From an uncultured Vicinamibacteraceae bacterium (lineage in GTDB: Bacteria; Acidobacteriota; Vicinamibacteria; Vicinamibacterales; Vicinamibacteraceae): a stretch of DNA of 64,000 bases. The notes under the pieces were generated by a model. It worked only from the letters and a program-made list of their open reading frames with translations, was not told where the DNA came from and did no database searches. Every line of letters starts with the position of its first letter. Position 1 is the stretch's first letter. The DNA lies in the NCBI GenBank assembly GCA_964430855.1, contig CAYSHC010000002.1, positions 2,376 through 66,375 on the forward strand. The letters are read 5' to 3'. The position numbers and the translations under genes are program-made. This document shows, in pieces, positions 9,614 through 59,460 of this stretch.

Positions 9614-9627
9614 CCATTCCGTGACCG

Positions 9628-11658: not shown

Positions 11659-11664
11659 TTCGCG

Positions 11665-14600
11665 ATGGCCCTGACGCGCCGCCTGCTCCGGCTCCTGAAG
11701 CTGCTCACGCTCGTCCTCGTGGCGCTCGTCGTCGCGTCGCTCGTCGTGACGCAGACCCCCTGGTTCCGGGACTGGCTGCGGCGCACGGCCATGCGGCAGG
11801 CCGAGCGTGTGATCGACGGGCAGCTGATCATCGGCCGCATCGAGGGGACGCTCTTCACCGGGGTCGTGCTGCGCGACGTGTCGGTCGTGCAGGAGGGCGC
11901 GCCGGTCGTGAGCATCGACAGGGTCGAGGTGCGCTACGGACTCGGCGAGCTGCTCTCGGACGGGCGCGTCATCGGGCGACTGCACGTCGAGCGCCCCGTC
12001 GTCCGGGCGATCCGCACGCCCACCGGGTGGAACCTCGGCCGCCTGCTGCGGCCGCGCGCTCCCTCGCGCCCCGGCGCACCGCGTCCGACGTTCGCGCTCC
12101 CCGACATCACGGTCGAGGACGCGCGCGTCACCATCGAGGGCGCGGGCGCCGAGCCGGCCCGCACGTTGCCGCGGCGTATCGACGGCCTCAGCTTCCGGGG
12201 CGGCGTGACGAGCGGCGGCGAGACACTCGCCATCGACATCCGCGCGCTGCGGCTCGAGGCGGCGGAGCCCGACCTGTCGCTCGCCGACGTGCACGGCCGT
12301 CTCGTCAACGACACCGCGGGCTGGCACTTCGAGAACCTGCATGTGCAGACGGGCGACTCGGTCGTCGACGTGACCGGCGACCTCACGCGGACGGAAGAGG
12401 GCGGGCCGCTGACCTTCGCGCTCGACGTCGCCGGGTCGCCGGTGTCGCTACCGGAGGTTGGCCGCTTCCTGCCAGCCGTGGCAGCGATCGACGTGCGGCC
12501 ACGCTTCACCGCGCGCGTGGAAGGTCCGCTCGACGCACTGCGCGTCGACCTCCACATGTCGTCGGAGGCGGGCGACGTCAGGGGACCGGTGACGCTCGAC
12601 CTGCGCGGCCCCACGCGGTCGGTGGCGGCTGACGTGGACATCGCCGATATCGACCTCGCGCCCTGGCTCGACGACACGTTTGCCGAAGGGGCCATCACAG
12701 GGCACGCCCGCGTGAACCTCCGCTTCCCGTCGGCCACGCCAGGGGTCGCGCTCGACGGCGCCGCACACTTCGAGGGGCCGTCGGCCGGCGCCTACGGGTA
12801 CGCCGCACGCGACGTCGTCGCCGACGCGCGGTTCGTCGGCCGACGCATCGAACTCGTGGCGAGGGCTTCCGCATACGGCGGCCGCGCGACGACGCGCGGG
12901 TTCATCCAGCGGGCGGCACGTCCGGGCGAACGGCTGGTCCTCTCGCTTGCCGGAGACGTCTCGGACATCGACCTGCGGCAGCTCCCGCCGGAGCTGGCCG
13001 TGCCGCCGCTCGAGACGGCCATCACCGGCGCGTACACCGTGGAAGGGCCCGTCGGGCGCCTGCACCTTGCGGCGACGCTCGACGCGTCGGTGGTCGAGGG
13101 GGCGCACCTCGGCGACGGCTTCACGGGGGCGTTCCAGCAGGCCCCCGACGGCTATGCGTTCACGGCCGACGGCTCCGTTGCGGACCTCGATCTGCCGCGG
13201 CTCGGCCGCGCCCTCGAGCTCCCGGCGCTCGCGGACGAGCGGTGGGCGGGGCGAATCAATGGAACCTTTCGCGTGCAGGGCACGAAGGACGGCGACGCGC
13301 CGCTGCTCCTGACGGCCGCCGGAGAGCTGCGAGACACGCGCGTGTACGGTGGCCATGTGCCGCAGATGGCGGTTGACGCGCGCCTCTCCGGAGACGTCCT
13401 CGACGTCGTGGCAAGAGGCGCGGTGCAGGGCTACGACCTCGCGGCGGTCAGCGGCATCGAGGCGCTCACGGGCAACCTCACCGGCGACGTGGACGCGCGC
13501 GTGACGTTCCAGGACCTGCGCGACGTGGCGTTTGCCTCGGTGGACGTCGACGGCACGGTCACGTTGCGCACGCCGACGCTGCTCGACGTGCCCTTCACCC
13601 AAGTGGACGCCGACGTCGCGCTGACGGGCGGTGTGCTCGACGTGCGCCGCCTGCGGGGCACGGGCGACGGGTTCACGCTCACCGGAAAGGGCACCCTCGC
13701 GCTCGGCGAGGCCGGCGCCTCGGACTTCGCCTATGAGCTCGACGCTGCCTCGGTCGTCGGGCCGGCCCGGATCGCCGACCTGCCGCTGACGGGAGCGGTC
13801 ACGACGTCAGGGCGGATCACCGGCCCGCGCCAGGCCTTCCACGTCGAGGGCACGCTCGAGGGCGCGGACGTCGCGTACGAGGACGTCGTCCGCGCCGTGA
13901 CCGTCCAGGGGCGATATGCCATCGACCTCCCGGACCTGGAGCCCGATCGGCTGCGCGTCTCGTCGGAGGTGGCCGTCACCAAGGTGGACGTCGCCGGCGT
14001 CGGCCTCGAGTCGGCGCGGGGCACCGTTGGCTACACGCCCGACCTCCTGGCCTTCGACGTCGTGGCGACCGACGGCCCCCGTACGCTGCGCGGCGACGGC
14101 ACGCTGGCGCTGGCCGACGGCGCCCAGGTCCTCACGCTGAACCGCCTGGCGATCGAGCGGGAAGGCGTCAGGTGGGCGCTGGCGGGGGAAACGGCACCGG
14201 CGGCGCTCACGATCCGTCCCGACGCCGTCGACATCGTGCCGCTGACACTCGTGAGCGGGACGCAGCGCCTCAAGGTCGGCGGGCGTATCGCGCTGGCCGA
14301 CGAGGCGACGCACGCGCTCGACGTCGAGGCCTCCGCCGTCGATCTCGGCGAGGCGCTCGTCCTGGCCGCGCGCGACATCGACGCCGACGGCCTCGTCTCC
14401 CTGTCGGCACACGTCGGCGGTTCGGGCCGCCTGCCGACGGTGAGCGGCACGCTGGACGTCACGGGCGCGAGGTACCGGGACGTGCCCATCGCGCGCCTGC
14501 ACGCCACCGTCGAGAACGACGGCGGCGCCGCGCGGCTGGACGCGATCCTCCAGCAGAGCGACAGCGCCTACGTCACGGCAAGGGGCCGCGTGCCCCGGAC

Positions 14601-16167
14601 GCTCTTCCTGCCGCCCGACACGCCCGACGTGCCCACGTCGCTCGACGACACGCTCGACCTGACGATCCGCTCGTCCGCCATCGATCTGGCACTCGCCGGG
14701 GGCCTGACCGACCAGGTCGCGGATCTCGCGGGCACGGCGCAGCTGGACCTCCGCATGACCAACACCGGCAGGACGCCGGTCGTCGCGGGAGAAGTGACGC
14801 TCCAGCGTGCCGGGTTCCTCGTCGCGGCGACGGGCGTGCGCTACGAACCCATCGACGCCGTGCTGGCGTTCGACGACGACAGGGCCTTCATCAGGCGGCT
14901 CACCGCCGGTGCGCCGGGCGGCGCGATGCTCACGGCGGAAGGTGAGGTCGGGCTGCGCGGTGACGCCAAGGGACGGCTCGATCTCCGGTTCAAGGGTGAT
15001 GGCGTGCGTGCGCTCGACAACGAGCTCGGGCGCGTCGCGCTCGACGCCGCGCTGGCCGTCTCGGGCACGATCTATGCGCCCGTCGTCGAGGGCGACCTGC
15101 GGATCGCCAGCGGACGCGTGGAGCTCGACGCCCTGCTGCCGCGCCTTGCCATCGGCAGCTACGCCACCGAGGCCACCTACAGGGGGATCCCCACCTACAC
15201 CTCGCCGGATGCGCCGCCCATCGTGCCGGACATCCTGGCGCCGGACGTGCGTGACGCGGAGGTCATCTACGCCGTCCCGCCCGCGCCGGCGACGGACGCG
15301 CGTGCGGCCGCCAACGGGGACACGCCGGGCGACGCGGACGCGCAACCGCGACAGACCTTCGTGTACGAGGACATGGCGATGAACATCCGCGTGCGCATTC
15401 CCGACAACCTCCTCCTGCGCGGGCAGAACGTCGAGGTGGGGCGCAGCGGCATCGGCGACATCAACGTGACGATGGGCGGCGACTTCCGCATAGCCAAGAC
15501 CGCGGGCGAGCCCCTCGTGCTCATCGGCGCCGTGAACACCGTGCGCGGTACGTACGCCTACCAGGGGCGTCGTTTCGACATCGCGCGCGACGGCCAGGTG
15601 CTCTTCCGCGGCGACAGCACCTCGAACCCCGAGCTCGACATCACCGCCGAGCGTGTCATCCAGGGCGTCGAGGCACGCGTGCGCATCCAGGGCACCGTGC
15701 GCGATCCACGCATCAGCCTGTCGAGCGAGCCGCCACTCGACGAGGCCGACGTGCTCGCGCTCATCGTCTTCAACCAGCCCGTGAACCAGCTCGGGATCGG
15801 CCAGCAGAATTCGCTCGCCGAACGTGCGGGCGGCATTGCCGCGGGCCTGGCCGTGTCGCCGATCGCGCAGGCCCTGGGCAACACGCTGAACCTCGATCTG
15901 TTCGACGTCGAGACCACCGACACGACCGGCCGGGTCAACCCGGCGGTAGTCATCGGTGAGCAGGTGAACGAGCGCGTCTTCGTGAAGTTCCGCCAGCAGT
16001 TCGGCAACCAGGAGGTCTCGCAGTTCCTGCTCGAGTACCGGCTGGCCGACTATCTGCGGCTGCAGGCCAACGCCGCCGAGGGCGACGGGCTCACGCGAGC
16101 GAACCGGTCGCTCACGCAGCGGGTGGAGCGCTACGGGGCAGACCTGGTCTTCTACTTTGCATTCTGA
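11665..16167 (+). CDS. tamB: translocation and assembly module protein TamB (DUF490 C-terminus)
   Basis: 1500 aa with an N-terminal TM anchor (LLKLLTLVLVALVVASLVV) and long beta-rich repeats. C-terminal GEQVNERVFVKFRQQFG...LEYRLADYLRLQ is typical of TamB. Confidence 0.85.
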   Translation: MALTRRLLRLLKLLTLVLVALVVASLVVTQTPWFRDWLRRTAMRQAERVIDGQLIIGRIEGTLFTGVVLRDVSVVQEGAPVVSIDRVEVRYGLGELLSDGRVIGRLHVERPVVRAIRTPTGWNLGRLLRPRAPSRPGAPRPTFALPDITVEDARVTIEGAGAEPARTLPRRIDGLSFRGGVTSGGETLAIDIRALRLEAAEPDLSLADVHGRLVNDTAGWHFENLHVQTGDSVVDVTGDLTRTEEGGPLTFALDVAGSPVSLPEVGRFLPAVAAIDVRPRFTARVEGPLDALRVDLHMSSEAGDVRGPVTLDLRGPTRSVAADVDIADIDLAPWLDDTFAEGAITGHARVNLRFPSATPGVALDGAAHFEGPSAGAYGYAARDVVADARFVGRRIELVARASAYGGRATTRGFIQRAARPGERLVLSLAGDVSDIDLRQLPPELAVPPLETAITGAYTVEGPVGRLHLAATLDASVVEGAHLGDGFTGAFQQAPDGYAFTADGSVADLDLPRLGRALELPALADERWAGRINGTFRVQGTKDGDAPLLLTAAGELRDTRVYGGHVPQMAVDARLSGDVLDVVARGAVQGYDLAAVSGIEALTGNLTGDVDARVTFQDLRDVAFASVDVDGTVTLRTPTLLDVPFTQVDADVALTGGVLDVRRLRGTGDGFTLTGKGTLALGEAGASDFAYELDAASVVGPARIADLPLTGAVTTSGRITGPRQAFHVEGTLEGADVAYEDVVRAVTVQGRYAIDLPDLEPDRLRVSSEVAVTKVDVAGVGLESARGTVGYTPDLLAFDVVATDGPRTLRGDGTLALADGAQVLTLNRLAIEREGVRWALAGETAPAALTIRPDAVDIVPLTLVSGTQRLKVGGRIALADEATHALDVEASAVDLGEALVLAARDIDADGLVSLSAHVGGSGRLPTVSGTLDVTGARYRDVPIARLHATVENDGGAARLDAILQQSDSAYVTARGRVPRTLFLPPDTPDVPTSLDDTLDLTIRSSAIDLALAGGLTDQVADLAGTAQLDLRMTNTGRTPVVAGEVTLQRAGFLVAATGVRYEPIDAVLAFDDDRAFIRRLTAGAPGGAMLTAEGEVGLRGDAKGRLDLRFKGDGVRALDNELGRVALDAALAVSGTIYAPVVEGDLRIASGRVELDALLPRLAIGSYATEATYRGIPTYTSPDAPPIVPDILAPDVRDAEVIYAVPPAPATDARAAANGDTPGDADAQPRQTFVYEDMAMNIRVRIPDNLLLRGQNVEVGRSGIGDINVTMGGDFRIAKTAGEPLVLIGAVNTVRGTYAYQGRRFDIARDGQVLFRGDSTSNPELDITAERVIQGVEARVRIQGTVRDPRISLSSEPPLDEADVLALIVFNQPVNQLGIGQQNSLAERAGGIAAGLAVSPIAQALGNTLNLDLFDVETTDTTGRVNPAVVIGEQVNERVFVKFRQQFGNQEVSQFLLEYRLADYLRLQANAAEGDGLTRANRSLTQRVERYGADLVFYFAF

Positions 16168-31828: not shown

Positions 31829-32638
31829 TCAGGTGGTGGGCGTCGAACGGCCCCTGACGGTGACGCTGCCGTTGACGGTCTCGATGCTCAGGGAGGGGCC
31901 GCCGCCGTTGAGGCGCCCGTCGAAGCGCCGCCGTCGGTCCTCGTCCTCGTCGACGTCGGTGAACCCGTCGACCGAGATCCTGCCGTTCACCGTGCGGACG
32001 GTCAGGTTGGCGGCGAGGCCGGCGGGGAAGGTCAGCTCGACGCTCCCGTTTACCGTCTCGAATCTCGCGCCTTCCGCGGGGACGCGATCGAGGGTGAGGT
32101 CGACGGAGCCGTTGACCGTCTCGGCCCGTCGGACCTGGCCGAGCGCCGAACCGCGCACCCGCCCGTTCACGGTCTCCAGATCGACGACCCCACGAACGGC
32201 CTCGATGGTGAGGGAGCCGTTGGTCGTCCGCAGCGTCAGCGAGGCGTTGCGCGGCACGCGGACGTCGTAGCGCACCTCGGCCTGCTGTCCGATCGAGAAC
32301 GACGACGGCCGGGTCGTCGTCAACGAGAGCGACGTGCCATCCACCTCTTCGGCAATGGTCGTCGCGGAGAGCAGCTGCCTGGCGCCCTCCTCGCTCCCCG
32401 CCTTGACCGTGCGCTCGGCACGAACCTCGACGCGCGTGCCGTCGTGACCCTCGACCGTCACCGCGCCATTCGTGTTGGCGATGCTGACGCTGGGACTGTC
32501 GCCGAGGTCGTAGGTGCGCTCCCAGGTGTCGCTGGCGCTGAAGCGCGGGCGGCCCGCGACCATGAGCTCACAGCCCGCCGACCCGAGAAGGGCCGCGGCC
32601 AGGACGGCTGCCGGCACACGCCGAGAGAGCACGCGCAT
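31829..32638 (-). CDS. DUF4097-family beta-repeat lipoprotein (putative adhesin)
   Basis: ATG at 32638. Lipobox LLGSAGC. Reiterated TxNGxv motifs: TNGAVTVEG, TTNGSLTIEA, TVNGRVRG, TVNGSVDLT, TVNGSVELT, TVNGRISVD, TVNGSVTVRG. Confidence 0.75.
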   Translation of the reverse strand: MRVLSRRVPAAVLAAALLGSAGCELMVAGRPRFSASDTWERTYDLGDSPSVSIANTNGAVTVEGHDGTRVEVRAERTVKAGSEEGARQLLSATTIAEEVDGTSLSLTTTRPSSFSIGQQAEVRYDVRVPRNASLTLRTTNGSLTIEAVRGVVDLETVNGRVRGSALGQVRRAETVNGSVDLTLDRVPAEGARFETVNGSVELTFPAGLAANLTVRTVNGRISVDGFTDVDEDEDRRRRFDGRLNGGGPSLSIETVNGSVTVRGRSTPTT

Positions 32639-32826
32639 ATAGCTGTTGAGACGGCCTGGCGGCGCCAAGGTTCCCTGGACCGGGGCGGCACACCCGATCG
32701 CAATCTCGTACGAGCGCTTACGGAACTGTAACCCTCGCATGGGTACCAGGCGACGTCGTGCGGCCAAGTCTGTGCCGATTCGGCCCGATTGCGCAAGACG
32801 GCGGGAGCCGCCGCCGGCGGAGGGCC

Positions 32827-32842
32827 GGGCACCGCCTTTGCC
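32827..32842 (+). promoter_or_regulatory. sigma54-type -24/-12 promoter candidate
   Basis: gGGCACcgcctTTGCc matches GGCAC-N5-TTGC exactly. It lies 18 nt (ATG 32860) or 48 nt (ATG 32890) upstream of the possible starts of the FN3/IPT gene. Confidence 0.4.
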
Positions 32843-32859
32843 TCGACACATGGGCGGGA

Positions 32860-35835
32860 ATGCCGTCTCTGCTGCGCCTGTTCGCGTCGATGAGCCGCCT
32901 GGCCGTTACGGCCGTGCTCGTCCTCCTGACGCTTGCATCGGCAGCCCAGGCAGGCACCGTCAGGCTCCAGTGGAAGCCGAACGCGGAGGCGAACCTCGCC
33001 GGCTACGTCGTGCTCTACGGTACCGCGTCCGGCGTCTACACCCAGTCCTTCGAGGTTGGCCCGACGGTGACGACCGTCGAGGTGCCCGACCTGCCGGACG
33101 GGGCGACCTATTACTTCGCCGTCCGCGCCTACAACACCTCGGGCCTCCAGAGCCCGCTGTCGAACGAGGCGTCCGTCTACCTCAGCCCGAAACCCCCGCC
33201 GCCGCCTGTGGTCACCGGCATGTCGCCGACGAGCGGCCCGATGGGCGGCAACACGCAGGTGACGCTCACCGGCGCGAACTTCACCGCGGGCACCGTCGTG
33301 CGCTTCGGCGCCACGGCCGGGACGGTGCAGAGCGTCTCGGCGGGCAGCATCGTCGTCCGGACGCCGGCGCTGCCGGTCGGTTCCGTCGCGGTGACGGTGA
33401 CGCGGCCCGACGGACAGGCGGCCACGGCGCCGGGCACGTTCACCGCGATGGCGCCGACGCCCGTCATCTCCGCCGTCACGCCGGCGTCGGGGCCGACAAG
33501 CGGCGGCACGAGCGTGACAATCACGGGCAGCCAGTTCGTCTCCGGCGCCACCGTCACGATCGGGGGCGCGCCTGCGGCCGTTGCCTCGCTGACCTCCACG
33601 GCGATCGTCGTCACGACGCCGGCCCGTGCCGCCGGGGCCGCCGACGTCAAGGTGACCAACCCCGGCGGACCGAGTGCGACCAGGGCCGCGGCGTTCACCT
33701 ACGTCGCTCCCGCGCCCGTGATCACGGCGATGTCGCCGACAAACGGGCCGACGAGCGGCAACGCGCTGGTCACGCTGTCCGGGATGCACTTCACCGCGGG
33801 CGCGGTCGTGCGGTTCGGGTCGGCCGCAGGTGCCGTGCAGAGCATCTCGCCGACGGCCATCGTGGTGCGGACGCCTGCCCTGGCCGCAGGCACGTACCCG
33901 GTGACCGTGACGCTGCCGGACGGGCAGTCGGCGGCGGCGCCGGGCGCGTACACGGCCGTCACGCCGTCGCTCCTCATCACGGCTGTCGGGCCGGCGTGGG
34001 GACCCGTCACCGGCGGGACCAGCGTGACGATCACCGGCGGGCAGTTCCAGACGGGCGCGTCGGTCACCGTGGGCGGCGTGCTCGCCGCGATCGCGTCGAT
34101 CTCGCCGACGGCCATCGTCATCATGACGCCGGCCCATGCGGCCGGCGCCGTGGACGTCAAGGTTGTCAACCCTGACGGCGCGACGGCGGTCAGCGCCGGC
34201 GCCTTCACCTACAGGGCCCCGGCTCCCGTCCTGACCGGTGTCCTGCCGGCGGCCGGGCCCGTCTCCGGCGGCACCGTCGTCACGGTGACGGGCGAGGGCT
34301 TCACGGGCGGCGCGGCGGTCCTGTTCGACGGCGTCGAGGGCGTGGTCACCGCACGAACGTCCACGCAGATCGAGGCCATCGCGCCGGCCCGCCCCGCGGG
34401 TGCCGTCACGGTGACCGTTCGCAACGAGGACGGGCAGACGAGTAGCCTGCCGGGCGCGTACACGTACGAGGACGAGCAGGAGACGGGTACGCCGACGTCG
34501 ACGCCACCCCCGCCGTTTGTCAGGTACTTCGCCGAGGGCGTCCACAGCGGGTTCTTCGATACGCGCTTCGCGCTGGCCAACCCGCACGACACGGACGCGT
34601 CGGTGACGGCGACCTTCACCGACCCGTTCGGCACGGAGGTCCCGATGCACATCGTCGTGCCGGCCGGCGGTCACGTGACCGTCGACCGCTCGAACATGCC
34701 GGCGCTGGCCAACGAGGCGTTCGCGACGCGGTTCGAGAGCGACGTCGAGATCGGCATCGACAGGACGGTGCAGTGGGATTCGGCCGGCTACGGCGCGCAC
34801 AGCGAGACGGGCATCGCCTCGCCGCGGACGTCCTGGTACTTCGCGGAGGGGGCCACGCACTCGGGCTTCGACCTCTTCTACCTGCTCCAGAACCCGGCAG
34901 ACGAGACGGCTGTCGTCCGCGTCAGGTACCTGCTCGGCACCGGGCAGGTCATCGAGCGGGTCCACCACGTGGCGCCGTTCGCGCGGACGAACATCTGGGT
35001 GAACTACGACCACCCGGCCCTCGCCTCGGCGGAGATCTCGGCGGAACTCACGTCGCTCAACGGCGTGCCCATCGTCGCCGAGCGCTCGATGTACCAGAGC
35101 CTGAACGGCCAGCTCTTCACGTCGGGGCACAACAGCGGCGGCGTCGCCACGCCGTCCACCCAGTGGTTCCTGGCGGAGGGCACGACCGGCAGCACGTTCG
35201 ACATGTTCATGCTGGTGGCCAACCCCAACGCCACCCCGGCGAAGCTGCACGTGACGTACCTGCTCGCCGTCGGCCCGCCTGTCGTCCGGTCGTACACGGT
35301 GCCGGCCAACAGCCGCTTCACCGTCTGGGTCGACTACGAGGACCCGCGCCTGGCCCAGGCGGATGTCTCGGTCGTGGTCACCTCGACCAACGACGTGCCC
35401 GTCATTGTCGAGCGCACCATGTGGTGGGCCGACAGGCCAGGCCAGCCATGGACCGAGGCGCACAACAGCGCCGGCGTGACCTCGAGCGCGCCCGCGTGGG
35501 TGCTCGCCGACGGCGAGTCGTCCACCGCACGCGGCGCCGTGACCTACGCGCTCGTCGCCAACACGAGCCCGAAGGCGACGCCGGTCCGCTTCACGCTCCT
35601 GACGCCACAGGGTCGCGGTCGCAGCGTCCAGGCGACGGTTGCCGCCAGGAGCCGCTACTCGATCGATGTCGCGATGACATTCCCGGAGGCCCTCGACAGC
35701 CGCTTCGGCCTGCTGGTCGAGAGCCTCGACGGCGCGGCGCTGGTGGTCGAGCGCGCGAGCTACTGGAACGCCGGTGGCATCACGTGGGCCGCCGGCACGG
35801 CCAGCCTCGGCATGCCGCTCGCCGGCAGCCGATAA
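32860..35835 (+). CDS. secreted multidomain protein: signal peptide, FN3, 5x IPT/TIG, and an uncharacterised C-terminal fourfold repeat of about 108 aa
   Basis: Signal peptide ...LLTLASAAQA. FN3 segment: LQWKPNAEANLAGYVVLYG...YYFAVRAYNTSGLQSPLSNE. Five units of about 82 aa (P.(V/I)T...P..GP..GGT.VT(I/L)TG..F..GA.V.(F/I)GG). Then four repeats begin at nt 34515, 34833, 35164 and 35497. An alternative start is ATG at 32890. Confidence 0.88.
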   Translation: MPSLLRLFASMSRLAVTAVLVLLTLASAAQAGTVRLQWKPNAEANLAGYVVLYGTASGVYTQSFEVGPTVTTVEVPDLPDGATYYFAVRAYNTSGLQSPLSNEASVYLSPKPPPPPVVTGMSPTSGPMGGNTQVTLTGANFTAGTVVRFGATAGTVQSVSAGSIVVRTPALPVGSVAVTVTRPDGQAATAPGTFTAMAPTPVISAVTPASGPTSGGTSVTITGSQFVSGATVTIGGAPAAVASLTSTAIVVTTPARAAGAADVKVTNPGGPSATRAAAFTYVAPAPVITAMSPTNGPTSGNALVTLSGMHFTAGAVVRFGSAAGAVQSISPTAIVVRTPALAAGTYPVTVTLPDGQSAAAPGAYTAVTPSLLITAVGPAWGPVTGGTSVTITGGQFQTGASVTVGGVLAAIASISPTAIVIMTPAHAAGAVDVKVVNPDGATAVSAGAFTYRAPAPVLTGVLPAAGPVSGGTVVTVTGEGFTGGAAVLFDGVEGVVTARTSTQIEAIAPARPAGAVTVTVRNEDGQTSSLPGAYTYEDEQETGTPTSTPPPPFVRYFAEGVHSGFFDTRFALANPHDTDASVTATFTDPFGTEVPMHIVVPAGGHVTVDRSNMPALANEAFATRFESDVEIGIDRTVQWDSAGYGAHSETGIASPRTSWYFAEGATHSGFDLFYLLQNPADETAVVRVRYLLGTGQVIERVHHVAPFARTNIWVNYDHPALASAEISAELTSLNGVPIVAERSMYQSLNGQLFTSGHNSGGVATPSTQWFLAEGTTGSTFDMFMLVANPNATPAKLHVTYLLAVGPPVVRSYTVPANSRFTVWVDYEDPRLAQADVSVVVTSTNDVPVIVERTMWWADRPGQPWTEAHNSAGVTSSAPAWVLADGESSTARGAVTYALVANTSPKATPVRFTLLTPQGRGRSVQATVAARSRYSIDVAMTFPEALDSRFGLLVESLDGAALVVERASYWNAGGITWAAGTASLGMPLAGSR

Positions 35836-36017
35836 GGCCTTCCGACTAACAAATTTGTATGCCTGAGCTGGCCTCAAGAGTGCCAGATCGCTGACGATTC
35901 CGTAATCAGCGCTGCCGCCGCGGAATGGTCGAGATCGCCGGGTTGCCGACATTTGCCCGCGTTTTCGCCCCGTTTCGCGTCGGCCTTCGAGGCACGGAGG
36001 TTGCCCTGTTACCGGGC

Positions 36018-37946
36018 GTGAAGATTCGAGTGTCGTTTCGTCGTGCGCTGCACGCGCTGCTCCTCTGCGTGCTGGCGTTCGGCCCGGGCGTCACAGCTGC
36101 TGCGGCCGAAGACGTGCAGCTGGTCTGGGATCCCAACACCGAGCCAGACCTTGCCGGCTACGTCGTGCTGATTGGCACGGCGCCTCGCGTCTACACCCAG
36201 TCGGTCGAGGTGGGGCCGGCGCAGCCCTTCGCGTCAATCAGCGGCCTGCCTGGCGGTCTCACCTACTACTTCGCGGTCCGCGCGTTCAACACCGCCGGTC
36301 TCCAGAGCGGCCTGTCGAACGAGGTCTCGGTGTTTGTCGCCAATGACACCGCGCCTGCCGGCCCTGCGCCCGTGGTCACCAAGGCCACGCCCTCGTCCGG
36401 CCCGGCGGGGGGCGGCACGCTCGTCGCGCTCAACGTCACCGGGCTGAAGCCCGGCGCCACCGTCACCTTCGGCGGGCAGAGTGCCGTCGTCATCTCGTCG
36501 ACAGCCTCGTCGCTCATCGTCGTCGCGCCGGCGCACACGGCGGGGAAGGCCCCCATCGTGGTGCGGAACCCCGACGGCGCCGCGAGCGACGGGTCCGTGG
36601 CGTTCACCTATCAGGCCGGCGATCCGCCCGCGTGGGACTTCGTCCGCTACTTCGCCGAGGGCGCGCAGAGCGGGTTCTTCGAGACGCGCTTCGCCCTGGC
36701 CAACCCCCACGACCATCCGGTGGCGCTGCGCATCACGCTTACCGACGTCTTCGGCACCGAGACCGTCCTCACGCGGACGCTGGCGGCGGGCGCGCGCATG
36801 ACGCTCGACCGGTCGAACCTGCCGCCGCTCAAGAGCGAGGCGTTCGGCTCGCGCTTCGAGGCCAGCCACCCGATTGGCATCGACCGCACCATGACGTGGG
36901 ATGTCGCCCACGGGTACGGGTCGCACTCGGAGACGGGCATTCAGGAGCCGCGCACCACCTGGTACCTCGCGGAGGGCGCGACGCACAGCGGCTTCAATCT
37001 CTTCTACCTGCTCCAGAACTCCACCGACAAGGCGGCGCAGGTGCGCGTGCGCTACCTGCTCTCGACGGGCGACGTGATCGTGAAGAACCACGTGGTGGCG
37101 CCGCGGGCCCGCACCAACATCTGGGTGAACCTCGACGACCCGGTGCTCGCCTCGGCGGAGATGTCGGCGCATATCGAGTCGACCAACGGCGTCCCCATCG
37201 TCGTCGAGCGGTCGATGTACCTCGACCACGGGGGACAGCTCTTCACCGCGGGCCACAACAGCGGCGCGCTCCCCGCGGCAAGCACGCGCTGGTTCCTGGC
37301 GGAGGGCTCCACGGGCGATTACTTCGACACGTTCATCCTGGTGGCCAACCCGAACAGCGCGCCGGCGCAGCTGCGCGTCACCTACCTCCGCGCGGGTGAC
37401 AGGCCCGTGGAGGTCCCCTACACGGTGGCACCCAACAGCCGGCTCACCATCTGGGTCGACCAGCAGCCGGGGCTCTCCCATGCCGACGTCTCGGCGATCG
37501 TCGAGAGCGTCAACGACCAGCCCGTGATCGTCGAGCGCTCGATGTGGTGGCCCGGCGTCGCCGGCGGACCGTGGACCGAGGCGCACAACAGCGCCGCCGT
37601 CACCACGACGGCTTCACGCTGGGTGGTTGCCGACGGCGAGGACTCGCCGGCAACCACCACCTACGTCCTCGTGGCGAACACGGGCGACGAGGACGCACGC
37701 GTGCGGTTCACGCTGCTCGGCCCCTCGGGCAAGGTGAACAAGGTCACGCTGACGGTGAAGGCCCAGCAGCGGTTCTCGATGGACGTGGGCGCGACGTTTG
37801 CCGAGGCGCGCAACACGCGCTTCGGGGTGCTCGTGGAGGCCGAGGACCCCGACGCGCCGCTCGTCGTCGAGCGGGCGACGTACTCGGACGCCCAGGGCAT
37901 CCCGTGGGCGGCAGGATCCAACAGCCTGGGCACGCCGCTCGACTGA
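36018..37946 (+). CDS. paralogous secreted protein: signal peptide, FN3, 1x IPT/TIG, and the same C-terminal fourfold repeat
   Basis: GTG at 36018 (or 36030). Signal peptide ALHALLLCVLAFGPGVTAAAA. FN3 segment: LVWDPNTEPDLAGYVVLIG...YYFAVRAFNTAGLQSGLSNE. One IPT unit. Repeats begin at nt 36639, 36959, 37290 and 37620. By eye, about two-thirds identical to the upstream gene over the C-terminal region. Confidence 0.85.
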   Translation: MKIRVSFRRALHALLLCVLAFGPGVTAAAAEDVQLVWDPNTEPDLAGYVVLIGTAPRVYTQSVEVGPAQPFASISGLPGGLTYYFAVRAFNTAGLQSGLSNEVSVFVANDTAPAGPAPVVTKATPSSGPAGGGTLVALNVTGLKPGATVTFGGQSAVVISSTASSLIVVAPAHTAGKAPIVVRNPDGAASDGSVAFTYQAGDPPAWDFVRYFAEGAQSGFFETRFALANPHDHPVALRITLTDVFGTETVLTRTLAAGARMTLDRSNLPPLKSEAFGSRFEASHPIGIDRTMTWDVAHGYGSHSETGIQEPRTTWYLAEGATHSGFNLFYLLQNSTDKAAQVRVRYLLSTGDVIVKNHVVAPRARTNIWVNLDDPVLASAEMSAHIESTNGVPIVVERSMYLDHGGQLFTAGHNSGALPAASTRWFLAEGSTGDYFDTFILVANPNSAPAQLRVTYLRAGDRPVEVPYTVAPNSRLTIWVDQQPGLSHADVSAIVESVNDQPVIVERSMWWPGVAGGPWTEAHNSAAVTTTASRWVVADGEDSPATTTYVLVANTGDEDARVRFTLLGPSGKVNKVTLTVKAQQRFSMDVGATFAEARNTRFGVLVEAEDPDAPLVVERATYSDAQGIPWAAGSNSLGTPLD

Positions 37947-38007
37947 GGTCGATGGGATAAGCTAGCCCCTCGACGCGTCGTCCCCCACGACGCCTCCCCG
38001 AGGAGAC

Positions 38008-38373
38008 ATGGCCAGCTTCACGATCCGTATCGGCGCGATCCTCATCGCGGCAGGCGTCGCCGCCTACGTGCTCACCGGCGCCACCAGCGTCACCGCGCTC
38101 ATTCCGTCGGCCATCGGGGCCGGGCTGGCGCTGCTCGGCATCGTGGCGGTCAGGCGTCCCGACGCGCGCCAGCACGCCATGCACGTGGCCATGGTCGTGG
38201 CGCTCATCGGGCTGGCCGGCTCGTTCACCGGCCTGCTGGCGCTGCCCGACATGCTGTCGGGCACCGGCGTGCGCCCATCGGTCGCGCTGCGCGCGGTGAT
38301 GGCCGTGATGCTGCTGGTCTATCTCGGGGTGGGACTCAAGTCGTTCGCGGATGCCCGTCTGCGGCGGCGCTGA
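38008..38373 (+). CDS. small integral membrane protein (4 predicted TM), unknown function
   Basis: GAGGAG Shine-Dalgarno lies just upstream of the ATG. 121 aa of hydrophobic segments. High GC3. Confidence 0.65.
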
Positions 38374-39607
38374 CGGCCGTGGGCTTCGCCGGGTAGTGCG
38401 ACGCGACGTACGCGTCGACGAGGTCGCGGAAGCCGGCGGCCAGCTCGTCGTAGGTGCCGCGCAGCGTCACCGCATGCTCGCCGTCGATGTAGACGGGGCA
38501 GTTGGGGGCCTCTCCCGTGCCGGGGAGCGAGATGCCGATGTTGGCGGCCTTCGACTCGCCCGGCCCGTTCACCACGCAGCCCATCACCGCCAGCGTCAGC
38601 GTCTCGACGCCCTCGTACTGCTGGCGCCACTCCGGCATGCGCGAGCGGATGTACTCCTGCGTGCGCTCGGCGAGTTCCTGGAACGTCGTGGACGTCGTCC
38701 GGCCGCAGCCCGGGCAGGCGGTGACGCTCGGGCTGAACGACCGGATGCCGAGTGACTGGAGCAACTCGCACGCGGCGTACACCTCCTCGCGGCGGTCGCC
38801 GTTCGGCCGCGGCGTCAGCGACACGCGGATGGTGTCGCCGATGCCCTCGTGCAGCAGCACGCCCATCGCCGCCGACGACCACACGAGCCCCTTGATGCCC
38901 ATGCCGGCCTCGGTGAGGCCGAGGTGCAGCGGCTGCCGCGTGCGCGCCGCGAGCGCCCTGTACACCTCGATGAGGTGCACGGGCCGCGAGACCTTGCACG
39001 AGATGATGATCTGGTCGTGGCGCAGGCCGCACTCGAGCGCGAGGTCCGTCGAGGTGAGCGCCGACTCGACCATGCAGGCGTTGACGATCTCGTCGGACGT
39101 CTTCCCGAGCCCCCTGTCGGTGTTCTCCTGCATCCGCCGCACGACGAGCTCCTGGTTGAGGGAGCCGCCGTTGACACCGATGCGCACCGGCTTGTCGTTG
39201 TCACGGGCGACGCCGCAGATGGTCGCGAACTGCTCGTCGCGGCGGGCGCCCGTGCCGACGTTGCCGGGGTTGATGCGGTACTTGTCGAGCGCGGCCGCAC
39301 AGGCGGGGTAGCGCGTCAGCAGCAGGTGCCCGTTGTAGTGGAAGTCGCCGATGAGCGGGGCCTCGCAGCCGGCATCGCGCAGGCGCTGCTTGATCTCGGG
39401 GACGGCGCGCGCCGCCTCGGGCACATTCACGGTGACGCGCACCATCTCGGAGCCGGCCTCGACGAGCGCCAGGCACTGCGCCACCGTGCGCTCGACGTCG
39501 GCCGTGTCCGTGCTGGTCATCGACTGCACGACGACGGGGGCACCGCCGCCCACCTGGACGTGCCCGACGCGGACGCCGTACGTACGGTGCAACCGGACGG
39601 TCGTCAT
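38336..39607 (-). CDS. ispG: 4-hydroxy-3-methylbut-2-en-1-yl diphosphate synthase (flavodoxin)
   Basis: 423 aa. The segments [33 protein letters not shown] and [12 protein letters not shown] match IspG/GcpE. Confidence 0.95.
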
Positions 39608-40046: not shown

Positions 40047-40646
40047 TCAGCGCGGCGTGTCCTCGAGCCGGGTGCGCGAGCTCCGGTGCAGGTCGAGCAC
40101 GTGCGGCCCAAGCTGCTTGCTCACAAACAGCTTGGCCTCGAGGTTCTCGATCGGGTTCGGCACGTACCGGATCACGTCGAAATGCAGGTTGGCCAGCGTC
40201 GCGCGCATGTCGTAGTGGCGGTTCTTGGTCTTGACGACGATCTCGTCGAAGCCGGCCGCCACGGCCCAGGTCTCCTGCTCCTCGGTCAGCGCGCGGAAGT
40301 GGCCCTGGCCCCGCCAGTCACTGCGGGTGCCGCCGATCCAGCTGTAGAGGATGCGCCGGTTCTCGAACGTCACCACGTCCTCGAGCTGCGCTGCGAGGTC
40401 CGCGAGCCGTGGGTTCGACTCGTTGGCGAACAACTCGTGACACACTTTGTAGGACACAGGGACGAGCGAGCCGGGCTCGTCAGGGAGCGGCGCGACCGCC
40501 ATCACGATCAGGTGCTCGCGATCGCTCAGCCGCTCGATGATCTCGCTGGCCGTCTTGCGCCGCGCGAACTCGCCGAAGAACTCCTCGATGTACTCGATCT
40601 CGAGGGCCCCCTGTTCGAGGCCGTAATGTCGGATCAGATATTCCAC
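40047..40646 (-). CDS. GNAT-family N-acetyltransferase-like protein
   Basis: 199 aa. WIGGTRSDWRGQGHFRALTEEQETWAVAAGFDEIVVKT resembles the GNAT motif A (R/QxxGxG/A) region. Confidence 0.55.
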   Translation of the reverse strand: MEYLIRHYGLEQGALEIEYIEEFFGEFARRKTASEIIERLSDREHLIVMAVAPLPDEPGSLVPVSYKVCHELFANESNPRLADLAAQLEDVVTFENRRILYSWIGGTRSDWRGQGHFRALTEEQETWAVAAGFDEIVVKTKNRHYDMRATLANLHFDVIRYVPNPIENLEAKLFVSKQLGPHVLDLHRSSRTRLEDTPR

Positions 40647-54831: not shown

Positions 54832-55005
54832 GACTGATTCATGATCGCAGGCGCCGAAGGTCGCACGTGCGACTGTCCGGCCTGACAGGCACACGACGGA
54901 GCGGAATCGGCGCCGGCGCCTGACGCGACCGGCGGGCCGGAGGCGGTCGCCGCGCCGGCACCGGACGCATTTGCGGGCGCGCCGCGAGGCGGCTACCATC
55001 GCGCG

Positions 55006-56481
55006 ATGCACCAGCACGAGCCGATGGCAGGCGCCTCAGCGCCCTCGCCTCTTCCGCAACCCGAACCCGAGGTCGTTCGCGCGGGGCACCTCGCCCCGAT
55101 GCCCGTGCGCGACATGCCCGAGCCACTGCCGCTGCGACGGATCATCGGTCCCAGCGTCATCCTCGCCGGCCTCGGCGTCGGGTCCGGCGAATACATCATC
55201 TGGCCCTACATCACCGCGGCGATCGGTCCCATGTTCCTGTGGGCGGCGGTGATCAGCGTGACGGTGCAGTACTTCCTGAACATGGAAATCGAGCGCTACA
55301 CACTGGCGACGGGAGAGACCGCGATCGCCGGCTTCGTGCGCTCGTGGAAGCCGTGGGGCTGGCTCTTCTGCCTGTTCACGCTCATCCCGAACATGTGGCC
55401 GGGCTGGGCGACCGGCGGCGTCACCATCCTGACGTTTCTCATGGGCGGGGGCGACGTGGCGCTCATCACGATAGGCGTCATGATCGCGATCGGCATTGCC
55501 CTCACGATCTCGCCCGTCGTCTACCAGACGCTCGAGCGCGCGCAGTTCTTCAAGGTCGGCCTGACGCTGGTGTTCCTCTCGGTGGCGATCGCGGCGGCCA
55601 TCGGTCCCGAGACCTGGCGCGAGCTGCCGCAGGCGGTCACCAGCTTCGGCGTGCTTCCCGACGCGCTGCCCATCACGTTGCTGCTGAGCGGCCTCGTGTT
55701 TGCCGGCGCCGGCGGCGTGAACAACCTGGCCCAGAGCAACTGGATCCGCGACAAGGGCTTCGGGATGGGCGTCTACATCCCGCGCATCGTCTCGCCGATC
55801 ACCGGCGAGGAGGTGGCGGCCCCGACGACGGGCGTGATGATGCGCGCCGACGCGGCCAACGTCGAGCGGTTCCGCGTGTGGTGGCGCCGCGCGAATGTCG
55901 AGCAGTTCGTGAGCTTCTGGTTCATCTGCATCTTCTCGATCACGGTCTTCTCGATGCTGGCCTACGCCACCGTGGGCGGCCGCGTGATGGGCGAGCAGGC
56001 CAACCTGGCGTTCGTGCAGGCCGAGTCGCTCGTGCTGCGCGAGGTGGTGGCGCCGTGGTTCGGCACGTTCTTCCTCGTCTTCGGGTCGCTCTCGCTCATC
56101 CTCGTCGCGCTCGGCACCGTCGACTACATCGCCCGGATCGTGGCCGACATCATCAGGACGGTGTACGTGCCCGACAGCGCGCGGTGGACCGAAAGCCGCC
56201 TGTATTTCGCGATCGTGTGGGCGACCGTCATCGCGGGCTCGGTCATCCTGCTCTCGGGCTGGCAGCAGCCGCTCATCCTCCTCATGACCGCCGCGTGCCT
56301 GAACGGCCTGGTGATGGTGGTCTACTCGGTGCTCCTCATCCAGCTCAATCGGCGCGGGCTGCCGGCGCCGGTACGGGTCCGCGGCATGCGCCTTGCGATG
56401 CTCGTGTTCGCGACGGCCTTCTACGGATATTTCGGCGGCTGGTTCGTCATCGCCCAGGTTCGATCGGCGCTGGGGGGCTGA
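55006..56481 (+). CDS. Nramp-related (LeuT-fold) membrane transporter, non-canonical
   Basis: 491 aa, 11-12 TM. GPSVILAGLGVGSGEYIIWPY and later segments resemble Nramp-family annotations, but I see no DPGN or MPH motifs. Confidence 0.6.
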   Translation: MHQHEPMAGASAPSPLPQPEPEVVRAGHLAPMPVRDMPEPLPLRRIIGPSVILAGLGVGSGEYIIWPYITAAIGPMFLWAAVISVTVQYFLNMEIERYTLATGETAIAGFVRSWKPWGWLFCLFTLIPNMWPGWATGGVTILTFLMGGGDVALITIGVMIAIGIALTISPVVYQTLERAQFFKVGLTLVFLSVAIAAAIGPETWRELPQAVTSFGVLPDALPITLLLSGLVFAGAGGVNNLAQSNWIRDKGFGMGVYIPRIVSPITGEEVAAPTTGVMMRADAANVERFRVWWRRANVEQFVSFWFICIFSITVFSMLAYATVGGRVMGEQANLAFVQAESLVLREVVAPWFGTFFLVFGSLSLILVALGTVDYIARIVADIIRTVYVPDSARWTESRLYFAIVWATVIAGSVILLSGWQQPLILLMTAACLNGLVMVVYSVLLIQLNRRGLPAPVRVRGMRLAMLVFATAFYGYFGGWFVIAQVRSALGG

Positions 56482-59371: not shown

Positions 59372-59460
59372 TGGTGCCGAAGGCGGGGGTCGAACCCGCA
59401 CGATCCTTCCGGATCAACGGATTTTGAGTCCGTCGCGTCTGCCAGTTCCGCCACTTCGGC
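59372..59460 (-). tRNA. tRNA-Leu (anticodon CAA), CCA encoded
   Basis: Minus strand reads GCCGAAGTGGCGGAACTGGCAGACGCGACGGACTCAAAATCCGTTGATCCGGAAGGATCGTGCGGGTTCGACCCCCGCCTTCGGCACCA. It has a 7-bp acceptor stem, the anticodon loop CT-CAA-AA, a long variable arm and a GGTTCGA T-loop. Confidence 0.93.

Follow-up and report, generated by a model that had tools for sequence, protein, structure and literature searches.

What is the fourfold repeat in which two tandem genes of an uncultured Vicinamibacteraceae bacterium (Acidobacteriota) end, and what does it do for the proteins that carry it? The two genes, called here gene 1 and gene 2, lie on the + strand of a 64-kb stretch of contig CAYSHC010000002.1 (64,000 nucleotides, G+C about 71%), which was analysed at its whole length and is referred to as the window. 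A preliminary description made from the letters alone had noticed the repeat, had suggested four tandem beta-sandwich domains that might bind a ligand or be catalytic, and had been unable to name a family. Our results indicate that the units belong to the ASRT/ASRAH superfamily and that four of them form one module on secreted proteins. The explanation that we favour as a whole, with a probability of roughly 0.55, is that this ASRAH tetrad is a glycan-binding module which serves in anchoring or adhesion.

The repeat units and their superfamily

A tetrad of units closes both genes. When the C-terminus of gene 1 was compared with that of gene 2 by BLASTP, there were, in addition to the in-register alignment (62% identity), two shifted ones, by one unit with E 1.4e-41 and by two units with E 1.3e-21. 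In local alignments against 300 shuffles five of the six unit pairs of gene 1 gave z-scores of 10.8–42.3. The remaining pair, units 1 and 4, is weak by itself (z 2.5), and units 2 and 3 connect both. A chance or low-complexity repeat is ruled out by the shifted alignments together with the shuffle z-scores. The units are 107–113 amino acids (aa) long in a MAFFT alignment of all eight; within a gene they are 20–41% identical, and corresponding units of the two genes are 57–69% identical. Scanned with a unit hidden Markov model (HMM), the window contains exactly eight units and no further match. The genes and units are as follows (i-E, independent E value of the unit HMM; ORF, open reading frame):

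32860–35835, + strand: gene 1, secreted protein of 991–1025 aa; the ORF opens with GTG at 32758, likely start ATG at 32860
34522–34824, + strand: gene 1 ASRAH unit 1, divergent, RYFAEG...NP...IGIDRT...H.ET (i-E 3.1e-19)
34831–35157, + strand: gene 1 ASRAH unit 2, WYFAEGATHSGFD...QNP...VPIVAERSMY...GHNS (i-E 8.7e-40)
35161–35487, + strand: gene 1 ASRAH unit 3, WFLAEGTTG.TFD...ANP...VPVIVERTMWW...W.EAHNS (i-E 5.2e-46)
35497–35823, + strand: gene 1 ASRAH unit 4, WVLADGE...ANT...RFG..VES...LVVERASYW...WAAGT (i-E 8.7e-34)
36018–37946, + strand: gene 2, secreted protein of about 640 aa; the ORF opens with ATG at 35925, likely start GTG at 36018 or 36030
36645–36953, + strand: gene 2 ASRAH unit 1 (i-E 1e-17)
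36957–37280, + strand: gene 2 ASRAH unit 2 (i-E 3.3e-43)
37287–37613, + strand: gene 2 ASRAH unit 3 (i-E 1.1e-42)
37617–37940, + strand: gene 2 ASRAH unit 4 (i-E 1.9e-34)

The fourfold C-terminal repeat of the preliminary description is thus borne out by the shifted alignments, the shuffle z-scores and the unit HMM. Its unit starts at 34515, 34833, 35164 and 35497 in gene 1 and at 36639, 36959, 37290 and 37620 in the paralog translate into the peptides that it had quoted, within 1–2 nt of the frame, and the recurrence of all four units in the paralog agrees with the unit HMM and with the identity of corresponding units. The motif details had also been given correctly: the alignment shows W..AEG, NP and VVER, and H-N-S at units 2 and 3, with a degenerate unit 1 (IGIDRT...H.ET). 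At unit 4, Thr or Ser replaces the His.

In the AlphaFold2 model of the gene 2 tetrad, made from a 70-sequence alignment, each unit has eight strands, the mean predicted local distance difference test value (pLDDT) is 95.8 and the predicted template modelling score (pTM) is 0.93. The suggestion of four tandem beta-sandwich domains therefore holds in the model. When the model was compared with the PDB by Foldseek, probability 1.00 was reached for two proteins only, TM1070 and ASRT. More specifically, Thermotoga TM1070 (1NC7) is matched with E 6e-9, a template modelling (TM) score of 0.80 and a root mean square deviation of 1.9 Å (114 columns, 18% identity), and the ASRT chains (2II7/2II8/2II9/2IIA) are matched with TM up to 0.81. 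An array of Ig- or fn3-type domains was rejected, such PDB matches having a probability of at most 0.57 and TM of about 0.1. Among viral structures, Foldseek yielded nothing beyond low-TM multi-domain noise.

The same two proteins come out on top when a profile built from 42 units (alignment A2) is searched against 177,635 PDB sequences (ASRT E 4.7e-4, TM1070 E 5.8e-3, next match 0.12). By hhalign the unit profile matches the ASRT-type superfamily with 92.5% probability, and the match to ASRT and TM1070 spans strands 2–7, 'VPIVV' included. Similarity to the superfamily is marginal for any single sequence. The gene 1 tetrad alone had no match among PDB sequences by phmmer, and the unit profile was needed to reach ASRT and TM1070. 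In Pfam the repeat falls partly under DUF5719 (PF18986, cut-off 26.2 bits): full-length gene 2 scores 30.1 bits, and the isolated C-terminal regions of gene 1 and gene 2 score 36.7 bits (four stretches) and 39.0 bits, respectively. Full-length gene 1 has no reported DUF5719 match in the Pfam scan. Unit 4 alone scores 16.5 bits in gene 1 and 26.9 bits in gene 2. Only positions ~50–157 of the 319-position profile are matched, once per unit, and of 70 relatives, 23 have a DUF5719 match and six a Pfam ASRT (PF07100) match (best E 1e-6). DUF5719 covers the units only marginally. The preliminary description would have given up the repeat if it mapped to a Pfam domain of assigned function. This is only half the case: a Pfam family exists, but it is a DUF, and the sole functional proposal for this kind of domain is computational (PMC2739507).

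The ASRAH domain was defined by De Souza, Iyer and Aravind (Biol Direct 2009; PMC2739507) with two hallmarks: strand 1 begins with a Trp that usually follows a polar residue, and strand 2 ends with a near-invariant Asn. In 196 distinct tetrads of the present family the strand-1 Trp is found in at least 90% at units 2, 3 and 4, preceded by T, S, R, Q or E, and unit 1 has Arg-Tyr or Arg-Phe at this position. The strand-2 Asn, in 'NP' or 'ANT', reaches at least 90% at all four unit positions. According to DSSP of the model strand 2 ends on Asn (N129, N239, N349), and in the profile alignment the Asn of the unit 'NP' is aligned with the Asn of the ASRT 'CILN' motif. The 'W..AEG' and 'NP' motifs of the earlier reader are these superfamily hallmarks. 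Every defining feature of ASRAH membership that could be tested passes. We are therefore highly confident that each unit is an ASRAH domain, i.e. an eight-stranded beta-sandwich of the ASRT/TM1070 superfamily (Pfam ASRT PF07100, DUF5719 PF18986). The family that could not be named before is now named by Foldseek, the unit profile, hhalign and the DUF5719 score.

ASRAH domains have been described as solo proteins, dyads and tetrads, and in three families, of which one comprises tetramer-forming solo proteins of the cytoplasm, another secreted Chloroflexi tetrads fused to a cell-wall amidase, and the third actinobacterial dyad lipoproteins (PMC2739507). The species list of that paper is without Acidobacteria. 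Like the solo proteins TM1070 and ASRT, the units here are eight-stranded beta-sandwiches of about 105–115 aa with the strand-1 Trp and the strand-2 Asn. The solo proteins are, however, cytoplasmic and single-domain, and bring four domains together as a homotetramer, whereas here the proteins are secreted and the four domains are fused in one chain. Solo ASRT has the pocket signature SHEshChhN, with its His and Cys; strand 2 of the units reads F(D/N)xFxLx(A/Q)NP without either of them, and the AEG, VVER and HNS motifs are the units' own. The Chloroflexi tetrads (Roseiflexus, Chloroflexus, Herpetosiphon) are likewise secreted, have four ASRAH domains in tandem as the present ones do, and, again like these, are predicted to bind a glycan of the cell envelope. 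The Chloroflexi tetrads are always fused to N-acetylmuramoyl-L-alanine amidase (PMC2739507), whereas the taxon here is Acidobacteriota (Vicinamibacterales). Pfam found no amidase domain in either gene, and the top families of the 112 relatives (70 + 42) that were scanned for partner domains include none.

DUF5719 itself is probably the actinobacterial family of cell-surface dyad lipoproteins that is linked to WhiB and a glycosyltransferase in PMC2739507. The present tetrads are extracytoplasmic as well and their C-terminal regions score above its cut-off, but they have four units instead of two, no lipobox and no WhiB/glycosyltransferase neighbourhood. Moreover, about 105 of the 319 profile positions are matched, and the N- and C-terminal extensions of DUF5719 are unmatched. 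The tetrads fit none of the three described ASRAH families, the Chloroflexi tetrads having been compared by description only. Since they are without the defining features of these families, they make up a new, very large subfamily and architecture and not a new kind of domain. The kind itself is already known by computation; what is new is the setting of the tetrad, a module specific to the Vicinamibacterales. A literature search with the name 'DUF5719' found no paper, the name 'ASRAH' led to the 2009 paper (PMC2739507) only, and the Luteitalea genome papers contain nothing on this tetrad family.

A fixed tetrad and its distribution

Exactly four units are present in 201 of 212 relatives, the rest having three and looking like fragments, and in 140 of 141 representatives of 50%-identity clusters. 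The one other representative has eight units, which are two tetrads. Each of the four positions has its own signature in the 196 distinct tetrads:

unit 1: RY.AEG...F.TR..L.NP...DRTM.W...YG.H.E
unit 2: W.LAEGATH.GF.LFYLLQNP...SR..IWV...P..VERAMY...F.AGH.S
unit 3: W.LAEG.TG..FD.F.L.ANP...SR..IWVD...P..VERAMWWPG...W.EAHNS
unit 4: W..A.GE...TY.L.ANTS...SR...RFG..VES...VVERAMY...WAAGTNAL

The junction from GHxS to the W..AEG of the next unit measures 19 residues in 278 of 287 cases. If the fn3 and TIG domains are included, as in the full-length gene 2 model, pTM drops to 0.75 and the pLDDT of the tetrad is still about 95. Because of this drop we regard the tetrad as a rigid body and the N-terminal domains as less firmly placed. 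The four units, fused head to tail, are one rigid four-domain module. It is acidic, with a median isoelectric point (pI) of 5.0 and a net charge of about −13.

The family is very large. By word-indexed search, the full tetrad is covered at 44–95% identity in at least 2,033 protein clusters. An exhaustive HMM search of 1.84 billion cluster representatives gave 4,184 proteins (50%-identity clusters) at E≤1e-30 and 8,805 at E≤1e-3; the latter count may include proteins with fn3 or TIG only, as the search profile has ~170 weak N-terminal positions. At least 584 loci match in species-representative genomes. The best 78 of them all come from Vicinamibacterales, Vicinamibacteraceae, Luteitalea or unclassified Acidobacteriota metagenome-assembled genomes (MAGs), many from the same genome, and 16 of the 78 from the single MAG JAEUQQ01. 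A tblastn search of 72,556 plasmids gave no match.

The module is the end of the protein in 129 of the 141 representatives (tails of ≤10 aa), and 58 of 70 relatives have 0–4 aa after it. In a minority of family members (P0122, P0128, P0173, P0194, P0215, P0237, P0257, P0261) a further 240–660 residues follow the tetrad, and several of these tails are rich in Cys and unmatched in Pfam. Most N-terminal partners, which are very diverse, are surface-type repeats without catalytic function, of the Pfam families TIG, fn3, TSP3, Flg_new_2, BACON and CarboxypepD_reg, and further partners are PD40, FG-GAP, DUF11, Big_9, cadherin-like domains, SdrD_B and propellers. Enzymes are occasional partners (a GH3 C-terminal fragment, subtilase S8, peptidase M64, ThuA). 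In many paralogues, P0035, P0082, P0088, P0099, P0056, P0103 and others, bacterial thrombospondin type 3 (TSP3, calcium-binding) repeats stand directly before the tetrad. The consensus of this element in alignment A4 is DxDxDGLPDxWE...GDPDxDGxTNxxE, with a conserved 'THPRG' right before unit 1. Gene 1 and gene 2 are without it and have a Pro/Thr or short linker instead.

The neighbours of the two genes in the window are housekeeping genes for NDH-2, DUF3810, DUF4097, a small membrane protein, IspG and a DEAD-box helicase. Orthologous contigs retain this synteny, and a Luteitalea pratensis paralogue has an unrelated gene context. A Pfam census of 107 flanking genes at 78 loci found no recurrent family beyond orthologous synteny. 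With no conserved neighbour family at the 78 loci, the proteins act alone, and there is no operon clue to their function.

Candidate function and competing explanations

Sugar binding was predicted for ASRAH domains from the pocket of TM1070 and from gene context, with no experiment cited (PMC2739507). The position of that pocket can be followed in the present family. His and Cys are the two residues that line the TM1070 pocket (PMC2739507). In the HMM alignment the Asp/Asn of 'FD'/'FN' is aligned with the His of ASRT 'SHE', which is the TM1070 pocket residue H25, and the Leu following the FD Asp is aligned with the ASRT Cys. In ASRAH topology one sheet is made of strands 1, 3, 4 and 6 and the other of strands 2, 5, 7 and 8 (PMC2739507). 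Combining this topology with the DSSP strand positions of the model places the D/N on beta2, the R of 'SR' and the W of 'IWV' on beta5, the E-R and W-W on beta7 and the W-x-E-x-H on beta8. The family-specific polar and aromatic residues would thus all stand on the predicted pocket-bearing beta2/beta5/beta7/beta8 sheet. Putative pockets would be lined by the FD Asp/Asn, the SR Arg, the VVER Glu-Arg and the Trp, Glu and His of 'W.EAHNS'. Part of their walls may come from neighbouring units, just as the pocket walls of the TM1070 homotetramer are completed by the adjacent subunit; it has been suggested that fused dyads and tetrads imitate this tetramer (PMC2739507). The high pTM of the modelled tetrad and its fixed junctions fit an intramolecular pseudo-tetramer but do not prove it.

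Putative ligand binding by the conserved Glu/Arg/His positions, one of the two roles raised in the preliminary description, agrees with the prediction for the superfamily. The most likely role of the module is that of a non-catalytic glycan-binding (lectin- or CBM-like) element (CBM, carbohydrate-binding module), to which we give slightly less than even odds. The residues that are candidates for binding are invariant in all paralogues irrespective of the N-terminal cargo. Since this cargo is unrelated, one common ligand is favoured, and it is probably one common polymer of the envelope or matrix, a polysaccharide or peptidoglycan. The module would then tether dozens of different surface proteins to this polymer, or make them adhere to it.

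Two kinds of known modules may be compared. SLH modules (three domains) and the CWB2 modules of Clostridioides difficile (three domains) are basic, and the wall polymers of monoderm bacteria to which they bind are anionic. The tetrad may be likened to them in its fixed number of tandem domains in a compact module, its occurrence on many paralogues whose functional or adhesive domains differ and its independence of operon partners. It differs from them in its unrelated fold, its acidity and its diderm host, and binding is only predicted for it. Beta-sandwich CBMs (e.g. CBM4) are likewise appended, non-catalytic sandwiches with conserved aromatic and polar residues and an occasional hydrolase fusion; the strand topology of CBM4-type modules is another one, and the predicted pocket here is on the opposite face (PMC2739507). 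No CBM family scored above its cut-off in gene 1 or gene 2, Agarase_CBM alone appearing with 11–13.8 bits against 26.3.

Several points weigh against a glycan-binding anchor. No member of the superfamily has experimentally demonstrated sugar binding. The sole member that has been studied by experiment, ASRT of the cytoplasm, reportedly binds DNA and loops it (PMC8660804), an activity that is irrelevant outside the cell. The conserved Glu/Arg pairs could be structural salt bridges. The acidic module (pI ~5) is unlike the basic SLH and CWB2 anchors for anionic polymers, and in a diderm host the proteins may be either at the cell surface or retained in the periplasm. In about 10 of the 141 representatives 240–660 aa follow beyond the module, so the terminal position is not obligatory. 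Finally, linkage to glycan genes was not found in the gene neighbourhoods examined.

The conserved residues could also be explained if the tetrad binds no small ligand or glycan and is a purely structural or oligomerisation scaffold, a rigid 'foot' or lattice block like an S-layer or stalk element, in which the invariant Glu, Arg, His and Trp would staple the sandwiches and the inter-unit interfaces. The confidence of the four-domain model (pTM 0.93, falling to 0.75 with fn3 and TIG, so that the tetrad is the rigid part), the constant length of the inter-unit junctions and the position-specific unit signatures, kept across the family as if the units fit each other, all agree with it, as does the fact that the solo relatives are obligate tetramers (PMC2739507). 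However, the conserved clusters MWWP, W.EAHNS and FD are rich in Trp and polar residues and in this respect more typical of binding sites, a conserved Asp/Asn holds the ASRT/TM1070 pocket position, and the occasional fusion to hydrolases (GH3 fragment, S8, M64) is in the style of binding modules. We consider a pure scaffold rather unlikely.

The place of the module at the extreme C-terminus, on many paralogues with unrelated cargo, brings to mind a secretion or sorting domain that is read by an export or attachment machinery, like the C-terminal domain (CTD) of the type IX secretion system (T9SS) or PEP-CTERM. The match of the TIG array to a 'choice-of-anchor' family points the same way, in addition to the short tails counted above (129 of 141 representatives, 58 of 70 relatives). 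Against this, ~440 aa is several-fold above the size of known sorting domains, and in about 10 of 141 representatives the module is internal or N-terminal, followed by 240–660 aa. No sorting-signal family was found in gene 1 or gene 2 with Pfam and NCBIfam; T9SS CTD, PEP-CTERM, LPXTG, autotransporter barrel and SLH had no match in either protein at E≤1. There is no conserved machinery gene nearby at the 78 loci, and homologous domains elsewhere are cytoplasmic or fused to amidase (PMC2739507). A sorting signal is thus very unlikely. The same can be said of an enzyme, i.e. of one or more units with a catalytic site made of Glu, Arg and His and acting, for example, on a polysaccharide. These three residues are strictly invariant in units 2 and 3 (70–196 sequences), and some relatives seem to be little more than a signal peptide and a tetrad, but gene fragments account for many of the short sequences. 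However, no enzyme is known in the fold family, and no catalytic family was matched by sequence or by fold. The motifs also differ between units, unit 4 being without the His and unit 1 having DR for ER, and such variation is usual in degenerate binding repeats and not in active sites. Catalysis by the units, the other role raised in the preliminary description, has no support, and we regard it as highly improbable.

Returning to the glycan-binding anchor, its most specific form would be a surface-anchoring system particular to the Vicinamibacterales, in which an intramolecular pseudo-tetramer offers four non-equivalent lectin pockets to one envelope or matrix polysaccharide and displays a varied set of adhesin-like and enzymatic cargo, with dozens of such proteins per genome and thousands of clusters in soils. 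In all its details this is doubtful, with a chance of about one in four. If this is true, the anchoring tetrad would be a diderm, acidic functional counterpart of the SLH and CWB2 modules, and would give the ASRT superfamily its first ligand that is tractable by experiment.

The two genes and their surroundings

Both genes are supported by codon-position GC, with G+C at third codon positions (GC3) of 0.92 in gene 1 and 0.91 in gene 2. An antisense ORF at 32458–35952 (− strand, 1164 aa) spans all of gene 1. It is an artefact of high G+C and not a gene, since codon-position GC favours the + strand frame. The order of parts in gene 1 is signal peptide, fn3, five TIG, a 16-aa Pro/Thr linker and the four ASRAH units, with 4 codons between unit 4 and the end. 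In gene 2 a signal peptide, fn3 and a single TIG precede the four units, and the stop codon comes immediately after unit 4. The start of gene 2 was chosen from the candidate start codons and from the 95%-identical relative P0001. The parts before the tetrads are:

32860–32952, + strand: gene 1 predicted Sec signal peptide, read off the sequence, MPSLLRLFASMSRLAVTAVLVLLTLASAAQA/G (...LTLASAAQA/G)
32938–33174, + strand: gene 1 fn3, aa 61–139 (Pfam PF00041, 32.5 bits, cut-off 25)
33205–34467, + strand: gene 1 five IPT/TIG domains, aa 150–230, 235–315, 320–400, 405–485 and 490–570 (Pfam TIG, 261 bits)
36093–36611, + strand: gene 2 fn3 (aa 57–135) and one TIG (aa 149–229; Pfam TIG, 52.9 bits)

Orthologues of gene 1 have N-termini equivalent to its predicted signal peptide. 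In the full-length gene 2 model residues 1–30 have low pLDDT, including a helix at 7–18. The fn3 of gene 2 scores 15.8 bits, which is under the Pfam cut-off, yet it is homologous to that of gene 1; the DNA repeats D9 and D10 also support the fn3 and TIG part of gene 2. The five TIG domains of gene 1 are supported by Pfam TIG (5 stretches) and by phmmer seeded with TIG2. The array matches NCBIfam CoaZ_rpt_PGGG, the 'choice-of-anchor Z' repeat, with 157.5 bits. TIGR03437 Soli_cterm reaches 26.3 bits, under its cut-off of 29.05, and this match lies on a TIG domain and not on the repeats. At the DNA level TIG1+2 (33203–33502) and TIG3+4 (33713–34012) are 73% identical, a duplication of two domains, and their spacing of 510 nt equals two 255-nt TIG units.

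Orthologous loci keep the tandem gene pair, and the locus L001 is 89% identical to the window. Two orthologous metagenome contigs have a third tandem family gene (L079 12110–13837, L080 10931–12658), which encodes 575 aa with fn3 and DUF5719. It is flanked by the orthologue of gene 2 on one side and, on the other, by the gene for the small membrane protein that lies upstream of ispG. In the window there are two family genes only, with 37947–38007 at the site of the third. Since L079 and L080 have three genes and the window two, close relatives differ in the copy number of this array. Right after gene 2 the window encodes a conserved 121-aa hydrophobic protein with no Pfam match (38008–38373), of which the orthologous contigs have a syntenic 122-aa counterpart. 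A promoter/terminator consensus scan of 32400–38400 gave no sites.

Elsewhere in the window (9625–16167) TamA (Omp85 + POTRA, 9625–11658) and TamB (11659–16167) are adjacent. We conclude from them that the organism has an outer membrane, i.e. is diderm, and has the translocation and assembly module (TAM). A tRNA-Leu(CAA) at 59372–59460 (− strand) is the sole RNA gene detected by Rfam and ARAGORN. Two ORFs that are well supported by GC3, at 54886–56481 (+ strand, 531 aa) and 40047–40646 (− strand, 199 aa), matched no Pfam family at the thresholds used.

In soil, Vicinamibacterales rank among the most abundant bacteria, and to our knowledge almost nothing is known about their surface proteins. 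The tetrad marks a very large paralogous set of secreted proteins in them (4,184 or more clusters at 50% identity; one MAG alone has 16 or more loci), although databases already annotate the repeat in part as a DUF. For the extracytoplasmic ASRT/DUF5719 branch, where sugar binding is a computational prediction of 2009, a ligand would give the first biochemical function, and the tetrad is a tractable way to learn what extracytoplasmic ASRT-like domains bind. The identity of this ligand would tell how the cells attach proteins to their envelope or themselves to soil polymers.

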